From positions 2,383 to 66,382 of the forward strand of contig CAYFYA010000004.1 in NCBI GenBank assembly GCA_964347325.1: a DNA stretch of 64,000 nt, in the 5' to 3' direction. Below are positions 5,922 to 43,915 of the stretch, in pieces. This stretch comes from an uncultured Methanomassiliicoccales archaeon. Lineage in GTDB: Archaea > Thermoplasmatota > Thermoplasmata > RBG-16-68-12 > JAJISG01. The position numbers and the translations under genes were made by a program. The stretch's first letter is position 1. Each line of letters begins with the position of its first letter. The notes beneath the pieces are model-generated. The model did no database searches. It had not been told where the DNA came from and saw nothing but the letters and a program-made list of their open reading frames with translations.

Positions 5922-6019
5922 CTCTGGACCGCCAAGGTTCATAGGCAAGGGTTCTGTCCAGGCGCATAACAAGCAAACGGTCCCGTCGGAGGCCGGCGGG
6001 CCAGATCAGATGGATCTCC

Positions 6020-7159
6020 ATGGACAGGACCTTGGTGAGGCCCGTCATCATCCAGTTCCTCGCGGGAGCGGCCGCCTTTTCGGCGATAGTGTTCCTTCCC
6101 AACTACGCTGGGCACGTCCTAGGCGCTTCCGACTTCCAGATTGGGATCATCATCTTCGCCTTCGCCTTGAGCGCCTTCTGGGCCTCGTACCTCTTCGGGC
6201 GGTTGGCGGACACCAGGGGCCGGCGCGGCGTCCTGAGAGCCGGCTTGGGTCTCGCCGCGTTGGCCAGCCTGACGCAGATCGTGGCCCCCGACCCCTGGAC
6301 TCTTGCCCTGAGCAGGGCCCTCATTGGCATCACCTTCGGGATGTTCCCCGCCGCCCTGCTGGCCTACGCCCACGAGAGGGAGCTGCCCATGGGTCGCTTT
6401 GTCTCCTTCGGGGCGCTGGGCTGGGGAATCGGGTCCTTATTGGCAGGTATCGTCGCCAGCCTCCCCGATTCAGAGGCCCTGGGAGTGCGCATGGTCTTCG
6501 CCCTGTCTGCGGCCCTCTTCGCGGTCTCCTACCTGCTGGTCCTCCGGATGCCATTCCCCCGGCACGTCCCCCTTCGAGTGCCCCTCTTCCCTCTCGACGT
6601 CATCAGGCGCAACCTTCCTGTCTATGCCTCGATGCTCATCCGCCACACGGGCGCGAACATGATCTGGGTCATCTTCCCAATCTACTTGGAGGACAGCCTC
6701 CTGATACCAAAGTCTCTCATCGGAGTGCTGTTCCTCACCAACACCTTCACCCAGTTTCTCTTCATGATGGTCATCGACCGCTTCCGCAGCGAGAGGCTGA
6801 TGGCGGCGGGTCTCATCGGCGCCTCCCTCACATTCTTCCTCTTCACCCTGGCCCGTGACTTCTGGGAGATGCTACCTATCCAGGTGCTCCTGGGATTCTC
6901 GTGGTCGAGCCTCTACGTAGGTGGCCTGAAGTTCGTGATGAGGGAGAGCGCCGAGAGGGCGACCTCCGCCGGTCTCCTTGGTTCAGCTCTAAACCTCTCA
7001 CAAGCACTCGGACCGCTGCTGGGAGGAATCATCGCCGTCGCCGCTGGCAGGTTGGGAGTGATGTACGCAGCCTCTGCCATGGCCCTGGTCGCCTTCGCGG
7101 TGTTCCTAGCAACGTCCCGTGGTTCGCGGCGCGCCCCCGCTCCGGTCGCGAGCGCCTAA
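6020..7159 (+). CDS. MFS-type transporter
   Basis: About 12 hydrophobic segments and the MFS-like loop motif GRLADTRGRRGVL after TM2. Confidence 0.75.
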   Translation: MDRTLVRPVIIQFLAGAAAFSAIVFLPNYAGHVLGASDFQIGIIIFAFALSAFWASYLFGRLADTRGRRGVLRAGLGLAALASLTQIVAPDPWTLALSRALIGITFGMFPAALLAYAHERELPMGRFVSFGALGWGIGSLLAGIVASLPDSEALGVRMVFALSAALFAVSYLLVLRMPFPRHVPLRVPLFPLDVIRRNLPVYASMLIRHTGANMIWVIFPIYLEDSLLIPKSLIGVLFLTNTFTQFLFMMVIDRFRSERLMAAGLIGASLTFFLFTLARDFWEMLPIQVLLGFSWSSLYVGGLKFVMRESAERATSAGLLGSALNLSQALGPLLGGIIAVAAGRLGVMYAASAMALVAFAVFLATSRGSRRAPAPVASA

Positions 7160-9584: not shown

Positions 9585-10537
9585 CCCTTTCCCAGGGTCT
9601 CCGCTCTCCGTCTCAGTCGGCTCCGGATCATACGTGCCAAGTCCTGATCATAGCCGTGGCACGTGTAGACGACCTTGGGGTTGCAGGCGTCCACAAACCA
9701 CAGCAGATCCGCGAAGTCCCCGTGATCACTTAGCGGAAACTGCGCGTCGACCGTATGGCTCCTGCTGAAGTCGAAGGTGGAACACCATCCTGAGGTGAAG
9801 GCCGTCTTCCCACCGGCATTCACCGCTTCCTGGACCTCTGGACTACCCGGCCTCCTAAGCATCCTGGAAGGTAGGACCAGGACGTAGGGCCCATCCTTCT
9901 CCTCAGTCGCGTCCCTGTAACGCGAATACCGGAGGTCGTGACCGTAGCTGTTATACACGTCTGCCAGGTCGGCGATCTTATCGTGCAGGAGGACCGGATG
10001 GTCCAGCCGGTTGCTGAGGGCAGTGAGCTCTTGCGCCTTCCCAAACTCGTAGGCTCCAAGGACGACGGGTCCGCTCTCCAGGGAGACCTCGAGCCAGGTC
10101 AAGAGGTCGTTGAGGACCTCGTCCTTCCTGGGGAAGGTGAACCTGGGCTTGCCATAGGTGGACTCGAGGATGAGGTAGTCGCACTCTTGGGGCTCACAGG
10201 TACCGCAGGTGGGGCCCCCGCTGGGGTTGACGTCCCCGGAGTAGAGGGCGTCCTCCACGCGTATCATGGCCGAACCGAAGACGTGACCGGCATCTAGGAG
10301 GGAGACGGCCATCCCGTTGACTTCCACCTCCTCCTTGTAGTCGACGCCCGTCCCCTCGCTCTTGCCTAGCCTCACCTTCATCACATCGAGGGTTTCGTGG
10401 GTCATGACGGCGCCGGGAGAGAGGTGGTCTAGGTGGCCGTGGCTGACCACGGAGTCTGGAAGCCTCCGCTTTGGGTCGAGGACGACCTCCTTCTCGCCAT
10501 CCTGGATCCGAATACCCTCGCGGTAGAAGATCCTCAT
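9575..10537 (-). CDS. Metallo-beta-lactamase fold hydrolase (small beta-CASP/RNA-processing-exonuclease-like)
   Basis: VSHGHLDH metal motif near the N-terminus, later DAGHVFGS, and C-terminal CHGYDQD. The ATG at 10537 overlaps the upstream gene's stop (ATGA). The track start at 10690 would overlap that gene. Confidence 0.7.
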   Translation of the reverse strand: MRIFYREGIRIQDGEKEVVLDPKRRLPDSVVSHGHLDHLSPGAVMTHETLDVMKVRLGKSEGTGVDYKEEVEVNGMAVSLLDAGHVFGSAMIRVEDALYSGDVNPSGGPTCGTCEPQECDYLILESTYGKPRFTFPRKDEVLNDLLTWLEVSLESGPVVLGAYEFGKAQELTALSNRLDHPVLLHDKIADLADVYNSYGHDLRYSRYRDATEEKDGPYVLVLPSRMLRRPGSPEVQEAVNAGGKTAFTSGWCSTFDFSRSHTVDAQFPLSDHGDFADLLWFVDACNPKVVYTCHGYDQDLARMIRSRLRRRAETLGKGWF

Positions 10538-10932: not shown

Positions 10933-11070
10933 GAACCAAATGCCTAGAGTTGGTTAAAGATTTCGTGGGTTCTGGCCAGGGCGACTCTTTAACTATGTGG
11001 TGGCTCTACGGGTTGTCAACCGCGAAAGTGGCGGAGGTGGCTGTTCATCCCCCGAAGGAGGCTCATCATC

Positions 11071-12406
11071 ATGGGTGCCGCCGGACGGGACAGCGTCGAA
11101 GGAAACCTTTCGATGCCCCGCTTTCCACAACTACAACGTCTGCTATCGGGATAGGGAGAAGTACGAGGTGGTGGCCTTCACGGCCACCCAGATCCCGAAC
11201 ATCGAGGACAGGCGGTACCCACCGAGCCTAGCTGGAAGCCTCTATCCTGAGGGCATTCCCATCCACCCTGAGAAGGACCTTCCGGAGCTCATTCGAGACC
11301 TCGAGGTGGACGAGGTGGTCTTCTCCTACAGCGACGTCTCGTATGAGCACGTCGGCCGTTGCTCTGCCATCGTCAACGCCGCGGGCGCAGATTTTACCCT
11401 CTTGGGGCCCAAGAGGACGATGCTGAAGACCGACACCCCTGTCATCGCAGTCTGCGCCGTCCGGACGGGCTCGGGGAAGAGCCAGACCACGAGGAGAGTC
11501 GCCTCCTATCTGCAGACCTGGGGAAGGAATGTGGTCATAGTCCGCCATCCGATGCCCTACGGAAACCTGGAGGACCAGGCCGTGCAGAGGTTTGCGTCCT
11601 TCGAGGACCTGGACAGACACAAGTGCACCATAGAGGAGCGGGAGGAGTACGAACCCCACGTGGAGAAGGGGATCGTGGTGTACGCTGGAGTCGACTACGA
11701 GGCCATCCTGACGGAGGCCGAGAGAGAGGCCGAGATCATCTTGTGGGACGGGGGTAACAACGACTTCCCCTTCTTTGACCCGGACCTCCACATAGTCCTG
11801 GTGGACCCCCACAGGCCAGGGGACGAGCTCACATACTACCCTGGGGAGGCGAACCTCCGTGCAGCCGATGTCGTCATAATCAACAAGGTGAATACGGCCA
11901 AGCACGAGGACCTGGAGCGGGTCCGCCACAGCGTGTCCACGACGAATCCCTCCGCCACCGTTATCGAGGCAGCCTCGCCAATAACCGTCTCACAGGAGGA
12001 GCCGATCCGAAACCAGCGTGTACTCGTGGTGGAAGACGGACCCACCCTCACCCATGGCAACATGGAGTACGGGGCTGCTTGGCTAGCCGCCAAGAAGTAC
12101 GGAGCAGGGGAGATTATCGACCCGCGTCCCTTCGCGGTGGGAAGCATCAAGCGGGCCTTCAACAAGTACTCCCATTTGCGTGAGGTCCTACCTGCCATGG
12201 GGTACGGGAAGAGGCAGATGAAGGAGCTTGAGGATACCATCAACGCGGCAGATTGCGACCTCGTCCTCAGCGGAACTCCCATAGATCTGGGGCGCGTGGT
12301 CGCGTCCAACAAGCCAATCATCAGAGTAACTTACGAGTTGCAGGAGATCGGGAGGCCGAACCTCGAGGAGGTGCTGGGCGAGTTCCTGGAGCGGATGGAC
12401 GTCTGA
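11071..12406 (+). CDS. Predicted P-loop GTPase (COG2403 / cyclic 2,3-diphosphoglycerate synthetase-like family). Proposed coding sequence is join(11071..11091,11123..12406).
   Basis: The body contains YEVVAFTATQIP, VVFSYSDVSYEHV and the P-loop AVRTGSGKSQTT. An ATG at 11071 with AGGAG 11 nt upstream encodes MGAAGRD in a different frame from the body. Removing 31 nt joins the two frames. Confidence 0.7.
11092..11122 (+). other. Candidate bulge-helix-bulge (BHB) intron inside a protein-coding gene
   Basis: Outer helix 11083-85/11124-26. Bulge CUU at 11121-23. A 4-bp helix at 11086-89/11117-20. Bulge ACA at 11090-92. A 10-bp inner helix at 11093-102/11107-116 with an AAAC loop. The predicted junctions fall between nt 2 and 3 of both bulges. 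Confidence 0.55.
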
Positions 12407-15835: not shown

Positions 15836-17362
15836 ATGGAGCCGCTGGCTGAGCTGGCAGACCGTGTCCTCGCGGGGGAGCTGACGAGCGGCGAGGAGCT
15901 CCACAGGGCGAAACTCGAGATCTGCCGAACCCACGGCTTGGAGAGGGTGCCAGGCAACCATGAGCTGCTGAGATACGTGCCTCGAGAGAAGCGGGATTCT
16001 CTCACTCTCCTGAAGAAGAAGCCGGTCCGCACGGCCTCGGGAGTGGCCGTCGTTGCTCTCATGACCTCCCCCGCTCCCTGTCCCCACGGAAAGTGCATCT
16101 ACTGTCCCGGTGGGGTGGACTGGGGGACGCCCCAGTCCTACACCGGAGCCGAGCCCGCCGCCATGAGGGCTATCCAGCACGAGTTCGATCCCGTTGCTCA
16201 GACTGAGGCGCGGCTAGCACAGCTTCACCACATCGGCCACAAGACGGACAAGGTGGACCTCATCATAATCGGTGGCACCTTCACCTCTAGGTCCGAGAGC
16301 TATAGGGAGTCCTTCGTCAAGGGGTGCCTTGAGGCGCTCAACGGGCGACGCTCCTCGTCCCTTCGGGAGGCCCAACGCCTCAACGAGGCGGCCAATCACA
16401 GGTGTATAGGCCTGACCATCGAGACGAAGCCAGACTGCTTCATCGGCGCTGAGGTGGACCACAGCCTCCGACTGGGGGTGACGCGGGTTGAGCTGGGCGT
16501 CCAGAGCCTCTACGAGGATGTTCTAGGTTCGGTGAACCGGGGCCACGGGCTGCGGGAGGTGGTCGAGGCCACTCGGAGGGCCAAGGATGCGGGCTTGAAG
16601 GTTGGGTACCACATGATGCCAGGCCTGCCTGGCTCTGACTTCGAACGGGATCTGCACGCTCTAAAGCAGCTCTTCGCCGAGCCGAGGTATCGACCGGACA
16701 TGCTGAAGATTTACCCCGCTCTGGTGATCGAAGGAACGGGCCTACATGAGATGTGGAAGAGGGGGGAGTACGAGCCGTTGGATAGTGAGGCGGCGGCCCG
16801 CCTCCTCGCCGAGGCGAAGCGCCACATTCCGCCCTACGTGAGGGTCCTCAGAATCCAGAGAGAGATCCCGGCAAATGAGATCGTCGCAGGCGTCAAGAGG
16901 GGTGATCTCAGGAGGCGCATCAGGCAGATCATGGAGGAGACGGGGCACAGGTGTCGCTGCATCCGTTGCAGGGAAGCGGGCCTCAAGACGGTGAAAGTGA
17001 ACCCGGAGGATGTGAAGCTGGGCATGACCGAGTATGAGAGTTCAGGAGGGACTGAGGTCTTCCTCAGCTTCGAGGACTTCGACAGGGAGGTCCTCATCGG
17101 GTATGCAAGGCTGCGCCTCGCTGCCAGAGCCATCCTGAGGGAACTCAAAGTCTTTGGCCAGATGGTGCCCTTTGACGACAGACCGGGGCCCAGGTGGCAG
17201 CATCGGGGATATGGGAAGACGTTGATGACTCATTGCCAGTCACTGACTGAAGACTCTGGCTACGAAGAGCTCTTCGTGACCAGTGGAGTGGGCGTCCGCG
17301 GCTACTACAGGAAGCTAGGCTACGAGCTCAGGGTTCCCTACATGGTCAAGAAGCTCGCGTAG
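15836..17362 (+). CDS. elp3: Elp3-type radical SAM/GNAT tRNA uridine(34) modification enzyme
   Basis: Radical SAM cluster CPHGKCIYCPGG and a C-terminal acetyltransferase motif QHRGYGKTLM. 508 aa. Confidence 0.88.
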   Translation: MEPLAELADRVLAGELTSGEELHRAKLEICRTHGLERVPGNHELLRYVPREKRDSLTLLKKKPVRTASGVAVVALMTSPAPCPHGKCIYCPGGVDWGTPQSYTGAEPAAMRAIQHEFDPVAQTEARLAQLHHIGHKTDKVDLIIIGGTFTSRSESYRESFVKGCLEALNGRRSSSLREAQRLNEAANHRCIGLTIETKPDCFIGAEVDHSLRLGVTRVELGVQSLYEDVLGSVNRGHGLREVVEATRRAKDAGLKVGYHMMPGLPGSDFERDLHALKQLFAEPRYRPDMLKIYPALVIEGTGLHEMWKRGEYEPLDSEAAARLLAEAKRHIPPYVRVLRIQREIPANEIVAGVKRGDLRRRIRQIMEETGHRCRCIRCREAGLKTVKVNPEDVKLGMTEYESSGGTEVFLSFEDFDREVLIGYARLRLAARAILRELKVFGQMVPFDDRPGPRWQHRGYGKTLMTHCQSLTEDSGYEELFVTSGVGVRGYYRKLGYELRVPYMVKKLA

Positions 17363-18131
17363 CCTCCCCCACGCTCCTGACGAACTCTCCGAGTTTCATT
17401 CCCCGCCTCTTGGCTAAGGCCTTCATGTGCCTCGTGACGCCGGAGCCGTATTGAGCGGCCTTTTTCGGGCGCGAAACCACCTTGGGAGGCAGTCCCAAGA
17501 GTGTGGCCACGTCCCGCAGAAGGGCCTTGCCCTCGGGCCTTCTCCGGAGCTCAGGTTCCACCGGCAGGACCTCTTCCATGACCCTTGCATGGCAATAGGG
17601 CAGCCTCAGCTCCCTGCCGCAGAAGCGGGCCATGGCGTCCTCCCTGGGGAGGGTCTCCCGAATGAGCTTCTCTAGGTCCTTCTCCATGGCCCCACGCAGA
17701 CTAGCGCCATTGAGCTTCTCATATCTGGCGTAGCCTCCAAAGAGCTCATCCGCGCCCTGGCCTGCAAGGATGACCCTGTCTTCGCACCTCTGGAGCGTCA
17801 CCCAGAGAGGGAGCTCGAAGCTGAGGGACAGAGGGTCCAGGCCTGGAAACCTGACCAACAGGCCTCTGATAGCTTCCATCAGCAGTTCATCATCCAAGTG
17901 TAGTGCCACCCACGACAGGCCCAGAGACTGGGAGGCCTCAAGCGCGTTGAGAAGGTCTTGGGAATCGGGGTAACCTGCGGTATACAGCGTAACATCCGTC
18001 ACGTCGCTGGCCAACCCCGCGAGAACGGAGCTGTCGAGTCCTCCCGAGAAGGCCAGGCTGACCGATTCAGCCTGAGAACAGCAATCGCGCGTAGCCTGCC
18101 TCAGCGCCTCGAGGACTCTCTCGGTTCTCAA
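17346..18131 (-). CDS. PP-loop ATP pyrophosphatase, asparagine synthetase C-terminal-domain-like
   Basis: SGGxDS motif (AFSGGLDSSVLAG) and GQGADELFGGY. It overlaps the GlyRS stop by 4 nt. Confidence 0.7.
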   Translation of the reverse strand: MRTERVLEALRQATRDCCSQAESVSLAFSGGLDSSVLAGLASDVTDVTLYTAGYPDSQDLLNALEASQSLGLSWVALHLDDELLMEAIRGLLVRFPGLDPLSLSFELPLWVTLQRCEDRVILAGQGADELFGGYARYEKLNGASLRGAMEKDLEKLIRETLPREDAMARFCGRELRLPYCHARVMEEVLPVEPELRRRPEGKALLRDVATLLGLPPKVVSRPKKAAQYGSGVTRHMKALAKRRGMKLGEFVRSVGEATRAS

Positions 18132-19630
18132 TCGCCCACCCTGAGGGAATCGAATGCTGTGGTTCCCTCGAGTAGCTGAGTCAGCACCGGCCGCAGCTCT
18201 TCGACGGATACGCGGACCTGATCTGTCGAGTCGCGATCCCTGACGGTCACGTCCCGATTCTCGAGACTCTCGTAGTCCACCGTCACACAGTAGGGAGTCC
18301 CAATCTCATCCATCCGAGCGTACCTCCGGCCTACGCTTCCGGAGTCGTCGTAGACCGCATCAGTCCACTCCCTGAGATCCCGATAGACCCGTCGCGCCAT
18401 GTCGGGAAGTCCGTCCTTGTTCACTAGTGGGAACACGGCGCATGCGAAGGGAGCCAGCTGCGGCGCCAGGCGAAGGACCGCCTTCTCGCCAATGTCGTAA
18501 TCGAGATCTAGGATCGCCCACACGTTCCTGTCGACTCCAAAGCTAAGCTCCAGCACGTGGGGAACGAACCTCTTTCCCTGATGGAACACCTGCATCTTCT
18601 CCTTGGAGTGTTCCTGGTGCCGTGTGAGGTCGTAGCTCGTCCTGTAGTGAACACCCCCAACCTCCCTGAAGCCCCCCAGGGACTCCATGTCGATCTGAAC
18701 GTCATAGTGGATCTCATTGTAGAAGGCCCTCTCGGCCTCCGTGAGCTCATACAGCCTGAAGGATTCGGCGGGGACCCGGAGCACATCCGTGTAGAACCGC
18801 TGGACCATGGCCAGGTGGTAAAGATAGAAGGCAGGGATATCGCCCCCCTGGAGAAGAGCCTTCACACTCTCATCCCTGATCTCCTCGCGGTCCTTCGCCC
18901 AAGTGATGCGCAACGTATCATCCTCCACCTCTCCCGTGTCGAGGTTATCCTCGAAGGTCTCGGGGTCGAAGAATATCTGGAGTTCGGCCTGGTGGAACTC
19001 ACGCATGCGATAGGTTCCCTGTCGCGGCGAGATCTCGTTCCGGTAGGCCTTCCCCACCATGGCTAGGCCCAGGGGCAGCCTCTTCCTGAGGAGCTCGAAC
19101 TCCCGCTTGAAGCTGAGATATGCACCCTGAGCGGTCTCTGGCCTCAGAAATCCCTGATCCTCTCCCTGGGGTCCCACCGCCAGGGGGAACATGATGTTGA
19201 AGGGTACGGGCTCGCCCAGTGGCCCGCCGCACCGCCGACACCCAATGTTGTTCTCAACGATGGCGGCCCTGACCTGGGCAGCATCCATCCCTTCTCCCGA
19301 GGTGCCCGTCGCAGCCTCAATCAGCTGATCGGCCCTGTGCGGCTCCTTGCACTTCGAGCAGTAGACTAGAAGGTCCGTGAAGAGGTCCACGTGGCCCGAG
19401 GCCTTGAGGGCCCGGTAGGGAAGGACGGTGGAGGTGTCGATGAGGTGGTAGTTGTCCCCCAGGCCCAGGAAGTAGCGTATCCAGAGGTCCTCCCACTTCC
19501 GCTTCAGACGGGCTCCATTGTGACCGTAATCGTAGAAGCCGGCGAAGCCGCCGTAGATCTCGGCCGACGGTATCAGGAAGCCCTTCCGCAAGGAGAGGGA
19601 CATGAGGTCGTCATACCGGCCCATTCCCAA
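18128..19630 (-). CDS. Glycine--tRNA ligase (archaeal/eukaryotic type)
   Basis: KGFLIPSAEIYGGFAGFYDYGHNGARLKRKWEDLW N-terminus, class II motifs (FRNEISPR, REFHQAE) and an anticodon-binding C-terminus. Confidence 0.88.
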   Translation of the reverse strand: MGMGRYDDLMSLSLRKGFLIPSAEIYGGFAGFYDYGHNGARLKRKWEDLWIRYFLGLGDNYHLIDTSTVLPYRALKASGHVDLFTDLLVYCSKCKEPHRADQLIEAATGTSGEGMDAAQVRAAIVENNIGCRRCGGPLGEPVPFNIMFPLAVGPQGEDQGFLRPETAQGAYLSFKREFELLRKRLPLGLAMVGKAYRNEISPRQGTYRMREFHQAELQIFFDPETFEDNLDTGEVEDDTLRITWAKDREEIRDESVKALLQGGDIPAFYLYHLAMVQRFYTDVLRVPAESFRLYELTEAERAFYNEIHYDVQIDMESLGGFREVGGVHYRTSYDLTRHQEHSKEKMQVFHQGKRFVPHVLELSFGVDRNVWAILDLDYDIGEKAVLRLAPQLAPFACAVFPLVNKDGLPDMARRVYRDLREWTDAVYDDSGSVGRRYARMDEIGTPYCVTVDYESLENRDVTVRDRDSTDQVRVSVEELRPVLTQLLEGTTAFDSLRVGD

Positions 19631-23104: not shown

Positions 23105-24082
23105 CTACCTCGATCTCGCCGTGCTGGTCAAAAAGAGCTCCTCCCGGAGGAAGTCGGGGAGCTTCTCGTGGACCTCTGCGAGTTCGGATTCCAGGACCTT
23201 GATGCCGTGGTAGTGAGCGTAGCCCCTGGCCGACTCCTCCATCACGGGGATGGCCAGGAATAGGAGGTTGCTGATGCCTAGGTCCTCCGCCTTGGCGAAG
23301 AAGTTGATGAGAGGCTTTGAGGAGACGGCAGTGGAGGAGATGAAGACCTCCAGGAGGACCTCCGTCTTGATGCCGGAGACCTCCTTGTAGGCGTAGAGGT
23401 CAACTCTGTGAGTGACTCCCGAGAGCCCCTCCAGATCGTGGAAGACCCTGGTGTTGTAGCCGGCGTTTCCCAGGACCTCGAAGGCGTACATGAGGACCGA
23501 GTAGACGACCGTCGGCCTGTCCTCCTCCCTCACGCGGTAGCTGTACACGGCGAGACTCTTGACCTCGTCCGGAGGGTAGTAGTCCCGGCACTGAGGACAG
23601 TGTAGCTTGAAGTCAGGGATGTAGGTGACCTCCTGGCACTCCTGGCATCTGTAGAAGTCCGCAGGCCTGCGGAAGTCCTTCCCGAGTAGCTTCAGCCTCC
23701 GCCCGCATTTGGGGCACTCCAACCCCTCGGCGGCCTTGAAGTCGGCCTCCGGAGCGATGTGCCCACATCTGAAGTGCTCGATGAGGACTTCCCTATGCAC
23801 GTCTTCTGAACTGCAGGAGGGACAGACGGTTGTGGATCTTAGGTGGGCGTTCCCGTCCTTGGGGCATAGGAGAAGCTTGTACCTGACGGCCCTCTCTAGC
23901 TCTCCGCGGGCGACGAGGGCTTCCAGGGCACCTGTCGAGGAGGGGTTGAAGCCCTCATCCTCGAGGAAGGGGTAGTAAAAGCCCTGGGGCTTGCGGAGGT
24001 CGATGACTGGGGCGACCTCTGGCCCGCCGGCTCTGAGGATAGCCTCCAGTAGTTCGTCAGCCCTCTGGGTGTCCTCCTTCAA
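23105..24082 (-). CDS. Multi-CxxC metal-binding protein (hypothetical), co-operonic with the GT2 synthase
   Basis: Four Cys pairs (CPSCSS, CPKCGRRL, CQECQE, CPQCRDY) are followed by a roughly 130-aa alpha/beta C-terminal domain. The stop lies 4 nt before the GT2 start. Confidence 0.6.
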   Translation of the reverse strand: MKEDTQRADELLEAILRAGGPEVAPVIDLRKPQGFYYPFLEDEGFNPSSTGALEALVARGELERAVRYKLLLCPKDGNAHLRSTTVCPSCSSEDVHREVLIEHFRCGHIAPEADFKAAEGLECPKCGRRLKLLGKDFRRPADFYRCQECQEVTYIPDFKLHCPQCRDYYPPDEVKSLAVYSYRVREEDRPTVVYSVLMYAFEVLGNAGYNTRVFHDLEGLSGVTHRVDLYAYKEVSGIKTEVLLEVFISSTAVSSKPLINFFAKAEDLGISNLLFLAIPVMEESARGYAHYHGIKVLESELAEVHEKLPDFLREELFLTSTARSR

Positions 24083-24198: not shown

Positions 24199-24284
24199 GC
24201 CACTGTAGCTCAGCCGGTCAGAGCGACGGTCTCGTAACCTCGCGGGACAACCGTAGGTCGAGGGTTCGAATCCCTCCAGTGGCT
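24199..24284 (+). tRNA. tRNA-Thr (anticodon CGT) with a 12-nt intron at the canonical 37/38 position
   Basis: GCCACTG acceptor pairs with CAGTGGC. The D arm is GCTC..GAGC. The anticodon arm is ACGGT-CTCGTA[ACCTCGCGGGAC]A-ACCGT. The T arm is GAGGG-TTCGAAT-CCCTC. Confidence 0.8.
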
Positions 24285-43656: not shown

Positions 43657-43742
43657 GCCGCGGTAACTCAGTTGGGAGAGTGCCAGACTGAAGTCGTTTG
43701 GCAGACATCTGGAAGTCGCCGGTTCGAGCCCGGCCCGCGGCA
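43657..43742 (+). tRNA. tRNA-Phe (anticodon GAA) with a 13-nt intron at 37/38
   Basis: GCCGCGG acceptor pairs with CCGCGGC. The anticodon arm is CCAGA-CTGAAG[TCGTTTGGCAGAC]A-TCTGG. The T arm is GCCGG-TTCGAGC-CCGGC. Confidence 0.85.
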
Positions 43743-43806: not shown

Positions 43807-43915
43807 CCCGCCTTAGCTCAGTTTGGCTAGAGCGGCTGACTGTAGTGGGTTCCCGGAGGTTTCCGGTACAGCCGCTGGGATCAGCAGGTCCCCGGTTCAA
43901 ATCCGGGAGGCGGGA
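43807..43915 (+). tRNA. tRNA-Tyr (anticodon GTA) with an intron of about 34 nt in the anticodon loop
   Basis: CCCGCCT acceptor pairs with AGGCGGG. The anticodon arm is GCTGA-CTGTAG[34 nt]A-TCAGC. The T arm is CCCGG-TTCAAAT-CCGGG. I could not draw a clean BHB for exact 37/38 borders, so the borders are approximate. Confidence 0.8.

Follow-up and report, generated by a model that had tools for sequence, protein, structure and literature searches.

A 31-nt bulge-helix-bulge element, predicted to be an mRNA intron, interrupts a P-loop NTPase gene in archaea of the Methanomassiliicoccales type

Messenger RNAs spliced by the archaeal tRNA-splicing endonuclease EndA include that of cbf5 in Crenarchaeota and that of HVO_1309 in Haloferax, where the 5'-untranslated region (5'-UTR) is concerned (PMC2738675, PMC7714728, PMC10485636); in the open-access literature we found only these two as archaeal mRNAs processed by this enzyme. 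The cbf5 pre-mRNA intron occurs in Desulfurococcales and Sulfolobales (Watanabe 2002; Yokobori 2009; PMC2738675), and its bulge-helix-bulge (BHB) motif has been described as relaxed and linked to (alpha-beta)2 endonucleases (PMC10485636; Yoshinari 2006, via PMC12397907). Those endonucleases of the Thermoplasmata type that are known are homodimers and require strict BHBs (PMC8707768, PMC12397907). A 2023 review expects that more such mRNAs are probably still to be discovered (PMC10485636), and our search of the open-access literature for introns and splicing endonuclease in connection with Methanomassiliicoccales found nothing. The present analysis concerns a 64,000-nt stretch of DNA (the window; contig CAYFYA010000004.1) from an uncultured Methanomassiliicoccales archaeon, in which a 31-nt insert separates the codons GAC (Asp) and TTC (Phe) of a gene for a P-loop NTPase of the COG2403 / cyclic 2,3-diphosphoglycerate synthetase (cDPGS)-like type. 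The insert and its flanks form a strict BHB that is conserved and covaries in a single clade of relatives, and deletion of the insert restores the N-terminal motif of the protein family exactly. We interpret the element, with a probability of roughly 0.86, as a BHB mRNA intron: EndA would cleave the two bulges, an RtcB-type ligase would join the exons, and the spliced mRNA would encode the full enzyme. Cleavage, ligation and the identity of the enzymes we infer from the known behaviour of archaeal endonucleases and from the cbf5 and HVO_1309 precedents.

Like the cbf5 intron, the element is of the BHB type, lies in a coding sequence, is confined to one clade, implying a single gain, and leads to mis-annotation; its removal by the tRNA-splicing endonuclease and a ligase, here predicted, would restore the frame. 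However, cbf5 encodes a pseudouridine synthase and belongs to Crenarchaeota, whereas the present host gene encodes a cDPGS-like P-loop NTPase of Thermoplasmata, and in place of the relaxed cbf5 motif there is a strict canonical one at the very 5' end of the coding sequence, where splicing is a prediction. Because gene and lineage differ, the element is analogous, not homologous, to the cbf5 intron. With the HVO_1309 intron of Haloferax volcanii (Schwarz 2020, PMC7714728), a substrate of a euryarchaeal endonuclease, it shares the mRNA context, the canonical BHB requirements and the location near the mRNA 5' end, but that intron lies in an untranslated leader and breaks no frame, whereas here the coding sequence is split and the correct protein would need splicing. 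The architecture is that of pre-tRNA introns at position 37/38, with two 3-nt bulges, a 4-bp helix, a cut after bulge nucleotide 2, and an exon sequence that forms the outer helix as well as the 5' side of the central one; the differences are that the host RNA is an mRNA and that the outer helix consists of only 3 bp of coding sequence. In eukaryotes, the stress-regulated IRE1/RtcB pathway splices XBP1 and HAC1 mRNA, with RtcB-type ligation in the case of XBP1. That pathway likewise does without the spliceosome, relies on a protein endonuclease that cuts at paired stem-loops and on ligation, and removes a short intron that shifts the frame of an mRNA. The nuclease and the recognition motif are, however, unrelated, and stress regulation is a feature of XBP1 and HAC1.

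In the window, an open reading frame (ORF) of 469 aa extends from GTG 10997 to 12406, begins with a low-complexity N-terminus and becomes family-like only from FHNYNV at 11123. In another frame, ATG 11071 opens a 27-aa ORF, composed of MGAAGRD and 20 further codons, that ends at 11154. The insert lies seven codons past this ATG, and deletion of its 31 nt (11092-11122) joins GAC to TTC and gives a protein of 434 aa that starts MGAAGRDFHNYNV / MGAAGRDFHNYN / MGAAGRDFHNYNVCYRD; at the RNA level, the spliced junction would be ...GGACGGGAC joined to TTCCACAAC (11091|11123). An earlier reading of the same DNA from its letters alone (the sequence-only reading) had pointed out the AGGAG at 11056-60, the ATG at 11071, the GTG 10997 ORF with its low-complexity N-terminus and the 434-aa fusion, all of which are in the sequence. 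The parts of the interrupted gene are as follows.

11071..11091, + strand: exon 1, minimal coding part, ATG GGT GCC GCC GGA CGG GAC = MGAAGRD, a motif universal in the family
11083..11126, + strand: BHB motif with outer helix h and inner helix h' (hBHBh'), from the minimum-free-energy fold, the RNAalifold consensus, pair counts and a covariance model
11092..11122, + strand: predicted BHB intron of 31 nt, with cuts after C11091 and U11122, which coincide with the GAAGRD|FHNYN junction
11123..12406, + strand: exon 2, FHNYNVCYRD... to the stop, 427 codons plus stop (ORF and translation), 65-82% identical to family members along its whole length

The minimum-free-energy and centroid folds of 11075-11135 are exactly hBHBh' (dG -22.4 kcal/mol, z = -2.76; 1 of 200 shuffles folds as well), the structure that the sequence-only reading had drawn and that also emerges as the RNAalifold consensus of the relatives; the BHB is kept in a fold of a wider, 123-nt context. 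Exon 1 contributes the codons GGA-CGG-GAC, which base-pair with the opening nucleotides of exon 2 (U-UCC) and with CCCG at the 3' end of the insert. The outer helix (11083-85/11124-26; GGA/UCC) comprises the 3 bp G83-C126, G84-C125 and A85-U124, the central helix (11086-89/11117-20) 4 bp from C86-G120 to G89-C117, and the central helix separates two bulges of 3 nt each, ACA on the 5' side (11090-92) and CUU on the 3' side (11121-23). The inner stem has 10 bp (11093-11102/11107-16), two of them G-U, and is capped by an AAAC loop (11103-06). In a canonical BHB, the endonuclease cleaves after the second nucleotide of each bulge. Applied in silico, this rule gives cuts at C11091|A11092 and U11122|U11123, precisely the junctions that restore the frame. 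The minimal hBHBh' geometry is matched 346 times on the + strand of the window, against a mean of 358 in dinucleotide shuffles, and with an inner helix of >=10 bp it is matched once, against 0.33. From homology, only one or two positions are open to the junction and the length must be 31 nt, and at one set position and length even a minimal BHB has an empirical frequency of about 4e-5 (346/(64000 x 140)), or of about 4e-8 for one of this quality; the coincidence of the BHB with the homology-defined junction is thus far beyond chance.

The protein family is large (8000 matches at E<=1e-10), and the top matches are 61-82% identical over 92-100% of the query. Its members are named predicted GTPase (COG2403 type) or, by NCBI, cyclic 2,3-diphosphoglycerate synthase, although the latter name on some homologues is no evidence of cDPG synthetase activity. 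The family reads GAAGRDFHNFN followed by VVAFTATQIP, a motif that the window gene displays only after removal of the 31 nt. The sequence-only reading had given such an N-terminus for the homologues, and 97 of the 120 best protein matches indeed begin x(3-8)-(I/L)(M/L)GAAGRDFHNFN. It had also named an equivalent in-frame insertion, or a true start at the FHN region, as outcomes that would speak against an intron; in the homologue alignment GAAGRDFHNFN is contiguous, with neither such an insertion nor a start at FHN. The host protein contains a P-loop (RTGSGKSQT) and a weak Pfam match to CobW/HypB/UreG, and no NCBIfam model matches it. A profile search of the PDB relates it to the cDPG synthetase of Methanothermus fervidus (PDB 8ORK/8ORU; E = 2e-5 to 2e-6 over ~100-140 residues), and Foldseek relates a homologue model to the same enzyme (E = 3e-18, TM 0.45, 15% identity). 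Sequence and model together point to a cDPGS-like P-loop NTPase that is only distantly related to the characterised cDPG synthetase. In an AlphaFold model of the intronless homologue P0015 (71% identical, pLDDT 93), residues 4-10 form strand beta1, residues 11-13 the Gly-rich turn, and helix alpha1 starts at D14/F16; the insert falls between Asp15 and Phe16 in P0015 numbering. The junction thus splits a core element of the nucleotide-binding type, encoded in part by exon 1, without which the protein is hardly plausible.

The interruption is shared by 16 loci with 14 distinct sequences, and in all of them exactly 31 nt separate GA(C/T) from TT(C/T). The loci include L001 and L002, from metagenome-assembled genomes (MAGs) of uncultured Methanomassiliicoccales archaea, and L161-L170 and L172-L174, from NCBI, JGI and Logan assemblies; L171 was left out for an NN gap at the insert site. 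Collection scans of genome and metagenome contigs returned nearly exclusively intronless bacterial and archaeal homologues, with the insert in L001 and L002 only, and the rest served as negative controls. In all 158 of the 158 other loci, the motif is contiguous (GAAGRDFH or the near variants GAGGRDFH and VAAGRDFH). The sequence-only reading had left room for a simple assembly indel; because the same 31-nt insert recurs in many independent assemblies, an assembly or sequencing artefact is excluded. A neighbour-joining tree computed for 119 homologues from the part that follows the junction unites the intron-bearing genes and the N-truncated calls in an exclusive clade of 22 with no intronless member inside, for which one gain would be the simplest history.

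Annotation of this clade is uniformly wrong. All 22 protein clusters (P0001-P0014, P0016, P0017, P0019, P0022-P0024, P0055 and P0105), which are also the closest to the host protein (69-82% identity), are mis-called, either as MPPDGTA plus ~10 variable residues plus FHNFN, from the GTG inside ATGGGTG (14 clusters), or by truncation to an internal Met (MVAFTATQ / MAFTATQ). PPDGTA results when the GAAGRD codons are read with a shift of one base, and the 22 clusters therefore all share this interruption.

The RNA structure is conserved along with the position. In an alignment of the 14 sequences (A2, 52 columns; effective number of independent sequences ~4), the exon half of the BHB and the intron CCCCG are invariant, all four central pairs are standard in 14/14 sequences, and the outer helix h is 100% paired, with G-U in 3 sequences. 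The inner stem is only 54% identical between sequences yet stays paired, with double (compensatory) changes in 7 of its 10 pairs and a helix h' of 9-10 bp. Standard pairs occupy 93.7% of the cells, as against 38-64% in slid controls, and all five measures exceed all 500 shuffles (0/500). RNAalifold, run on the 14 sequences unprompted, returns the exact hBHBh' structure. G-U pairs fill 14 cells, and the covariance model gives 71.9 bits for the + strand but 8.4 bits for the - strand; the constraint therefore points to RNA structure on the sense strand rather than to a DNA palindrome. The codons that form the BHB, GGA-CGG-GA(C/T), are fixed in 14/14 clade members, compared with 1/154 intronless genes, and the 18 nt after the exon-1 ATG are invariant in 13 of the 14 distinct relatives, the fourteenth having two synonymous changes.

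That a small palindromic insertion has simply inactivated the gene is an extremely unlikely account of these data. The insert is a hairpin-forming element and does break the frame, as a pseudogene would have it. However, exon 2 of the clade is a full-length ORF at 69-85% identity and ~20% nucleotide divergence, with no frameshifts or stops seen, the insert is kept at a fixed length with compensatory changes and G-U pairs, and synteny is maintained, with a divergent 131-aa gene upstream and glycyl-tRNA synthetase (GlyRS) on the same contigs in several relatives.

All 14 sequences keep the exon-1 frame open before the insert, where it reads (R/K)3-(V/L/I)-(I/V)-(I/V)-M-GAAGRD, a pattern shared with intronless homologues; in most relatives, an ATG or GTG stands in this frame 7-10 codons before the Met that precedes GAAGRD. 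Read straight through, this frame is closed by a stop no later than codon 15 of the exon-2 region in 14/14. Translated in either frame, the insert is hypervariable. Followed upstream, the exon-2 frame contains stops in 5/14, immediately before the GTG embedded in ATGGGTG, so the 42-residue low-complexity leader of the window is not conserved.

Programmed +1 frameshifting is a very unlikely rival. According to this model, tRNA-Pro slips on the invariant CCC_C (11116-11119), and the product would be MGAAGRD-SVEGNLSMPA-FHNYN..., with a 10-residue insertion and the diagnostic peptide DSVEGNLSMPAFHNYNVCYR. CCCC is indeed invariant in 14/14, the insert is free of exon-1-frame stops in all sequences, and its length of 31 = 3n+1 is constant. 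But CCCC(G) is already needed by the BHB, where it pairs with the CGGG of the Arg-Asp codons and with G11093, and the A-site codon after CCC is an ordinary CGN, neither a stop nor rare, with no known +1 stimulator. The covarying stem stands upstream of the slip site, and both the 3-nt/4-bp/3-nt geometry and the GGA/UCC pairing of the exons would be left without a role. The inserted peptide, moreover, is hypervariable (only S1 and P9 are fixed) and would split an invariant motif at the start of helix alpha1, and the match of the BHB cut sites to the motif junction would be a ~4e-5 accident.

Translational bypass of the 31 nt, as in gene 60 of phage T4, is the least likely of all the explanations considered here. 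A stable hairpin does directly follow the would-be take-off codon. This codon is GAC, however, and the codon before landing is GCU in the window and GUU, GGC or GGG in relatives, so that the two do not match; nor does a stop follow take-off, the next codon being AGC. To our knowledge, no bypass system of the gene 60 type exists in archaea.

The remaining rival, which takes the read-through ORF as the real gene, bears on the region upstream of the insert, where the following features are found.

10986..10994, + strand: TATA-box-like motif CTTTAACTA, with (C/T)TTAA(C/T)TA at a similar distance in 13 relatives
11033..11039, + strand: Shine-Dalgarno-like GGAGGTG, 7 nt upstream of the ancestral start position (ATC 11047)
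11047..11070, + strand: upstream in-frame codons IPRRRLII, homologous to the N-terminal strand beta1 of the family
11056..11061, + strand: possible Shine-Dalgarno sequence AGGAGG with a 9-nt spacer to ATG 11071; the same or a similar sequence occurs only in L001 and L161

The motif (C/T)TTAA(C/T)TA lies ~50-60 nt upstream of the ancestral start in L001, L002, L161-L169, L172 and L174, and we infer the window copy (10986-10994) to be the promoter of the gene. GTG 10997 is found 3 nt downstream of this conserved box; it is therefore probably upstream of the transcription start and probably not transcribed. The read-through model has translation begin at this GTG or at the GTG in ATGGGTG (11073-75), which yields a protein with a variable extension and no GAAGRD loop, makes the GAAGRD codons a decaying relic and predicts the peptide CPAFHNYNVCYR. 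We regard it as very unlikely indeed. The window does contain an uninterrupted ORF without an in-frame stop inside the insert, and gene callers report MPPDGTA...FHNFN for 14 clusters. The supposed relic is, however, invariant in amino acids, in the other frame, in 14 sequences, and it is preceded by conserved basic and hydrophobic codons and by starts. The extension frame is closed in 5/14 just upstream, its 42-residue leader is not conserved, and GTG 10997 follows the TATA-like box by 3 nt. Strand beta1 and the Gly-rich loop, both invariant across thousands of homologues, would be missing from the protein, and the covarying stem and the BHB would be left unexplained. The sequence-only reading had asked whether the long GTG 10997 ORF might be genuine; with its frame stopped in 5/14 relatives just upstream of the GAAGRD codons and its start 3 nt behind a TATA-like box, this is very unlikely.

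Exon 1 has two candidate start codons. In relatives, (A/G)GAGGTG and a 7-nt spacer are followed by ATG at the homologous position. The frame of IPRRRLII is open back to TAA 10990-92, and relatives read M-x-(R/K)-(K/R)-(K/R)-V-I-I there; in the window, these codons are translated only if the near-cognate ATC 11047 initiates. The ancestral start site, 8 codons before the Met of MGAAGRD, is ATG in L164, L165, L167, L168, L172 and L174, ATC in the window, L001, L161, L163 and L173, and ATA in L162, and the ATC and ATA sites keep the Shine-Dalgarno-like motif, the spacing and the open frame. A start at ATG 11071 would remove most of strand beta1. Either near-cognate AUC/AUA initiation would be used, or a subclade would have a shortened N-terminus and use AGGAGG 11056-61; in part of the clade, a near-cognate AUC or AUA may be the start codon of this gene. 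In the 123-nt fold, GGUGGC (11036-11041), which overlaps the upstream Shine-Dalgarno-like motif, pairs with GCCGCC (11077-11082) and stacks on the outer helix of the BHB; this pairing is not dependent on splicing. GGT-GCC-GCC lies outside the BHB, but its synonymous sites are likewise frozen in the clade. Pairing and frozen sites may reflect an extended structure or a constraint on translation initiation.

For the BHB intron, the following course of events is proposed. The primary transcript would fold into the strict hBHBh' with bases from exons and insert, the tRNA-splicing endonuclease EndA would cut after C11091 and after U11122, and an RtcB-type ligase would join the exons. The mature mRNA (...GAAGRD|FHNYN...) would encode 434 aa, or 442 aa if ATC 11047 initiates, and the intron would probably be released as a small circle. 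From unspliced RNA, only the 27-aa peptide, initiated at the real start, or a protein with a defective N-terminus would be made. Splicing predicts the junction tryptic peptide DFHNYNVCYR.

Several observations count against splicing or reduce the weight of the evidence for it. BHB-like geometry alone is as frequent in shuffles as in this GC-rich window, and the fold by itself is therefore weak evidence. The seven core pairs of the BHB never vary, so covariation supports the inner stem only. The 31-nt insert is free of stops in either frame in all 14 sequences, which makes read-through translation formally possible. EndA and RtcB were not found among the 10 window ORFs scanned with Pfam. The protein collection (90% clusters), searched for cDNA-type spliced proteins and with a profile of spliced N-termini, yielded no clade protein with a contiguous junction, a result that is uninformative. 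Finally, the BHB begins 12 nt past the start codon, and an initiating ribosome could compete with folding and cleavage. This last point leads to a speculative extension, which we consider unlikely: the intron might act as a splicing-dependent expression gate, set by ribosome loading versus EndA cleavage, in which only spliced mRNA gives enzyme and unspliced mRNA gives the 27-aa dead-end peptide. If so, the amount of a cDPGS-like metabolic enzyme would be set by endonuclease or ligase activity, and the gate would be an archaeal analogue of regulated unconventional splicing of the IRE1/XBP1 type, in a lineage with a strict-specificity endonuclease.

The host is an uncultured Thermoplasmata archaeon of the Methanomassiliicoccales type. 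The best named relatives of GlyRS (18128-19630, - strand) come from Thermoplasmata archaeon MAGs, and BHB splicing machinery is probably present because inserts in the anticodon loop, 12, 13 and 34 nt long, occur in 3 of the 5 tRNA genes of the window:

24199..24284, + strand: tRNA-Thr(CGU) with a 12-nt intron after position 37 (Rfam tRNA, 64.5 bits)
43657..43742, + strand: tRNA gene with a 13-nt anticodon-loop insert (Rfam alignment)
43807..43915, + strand: tRNA gene with a 34-nt anticodon-loop insert (Rfam alignment)

Parsed by hand, tRNA-Thr(CGU) has a central helix CUCG/CGGG and bulges UA|A and AC|A, the same cut geometry as the mRNA element. As the sequence-only reading had remarked, both mRNA junctions follow bulge nucleotide 2, like the 37/38 junctions in the intron-containing tRNAs of the window. 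The tRNA gene with the 13-nt insert (43657-43742) shows an apparent A-G mismatch in its central BHB helix. ARAGORN handled the insert-bearing genes poorly, with one tRNA-??? call, one Leu call for an apparent GAA/Phe anticodon and the third gene missed. Nearby, a TackOD1 (Thaumarchaeal output domain 1) protein (23105-24082, - strand) and an ELP3-like radical-SAM protein (15836-17362, + strand) fit an archaeal host.

If the predicted intron is real, BHB introns would be known to split two protein-coding sequences, of which this one would be the first from outside Crenarchaeota. A strict BHB in Thermoplasmata bears on the proposed link of mRNA splicing to hetero-oligomeric, broad-specificity endonucleases. 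As the 22 mis-called clusters show, such introns escape the gene callers applied to archaeal genomes and MAGs; the alignment of 14 sequences, with one gain confined to one clade, would provide a test case for BHB-aware gene prediction and for intron origin.

Elsewhere in the window, the covariance model of the element detects no second copy (next best score 11.3 bits), and a generic BHB scan for other mRNA introns gave 236 weak ORF-merging candidates and was too noisy. The next best BHB candidate, at 10401-10440 (+ strand), has z = -0.47, is antisense to its ORF and was rejected. Two + strand ORFs in different frames, 6010-6858 (282 aa) and 6020-7159 (379 aa), overlap almost completely; the overlapping ORFs of 6010-7159 may be GC-rich shadow ORFs.

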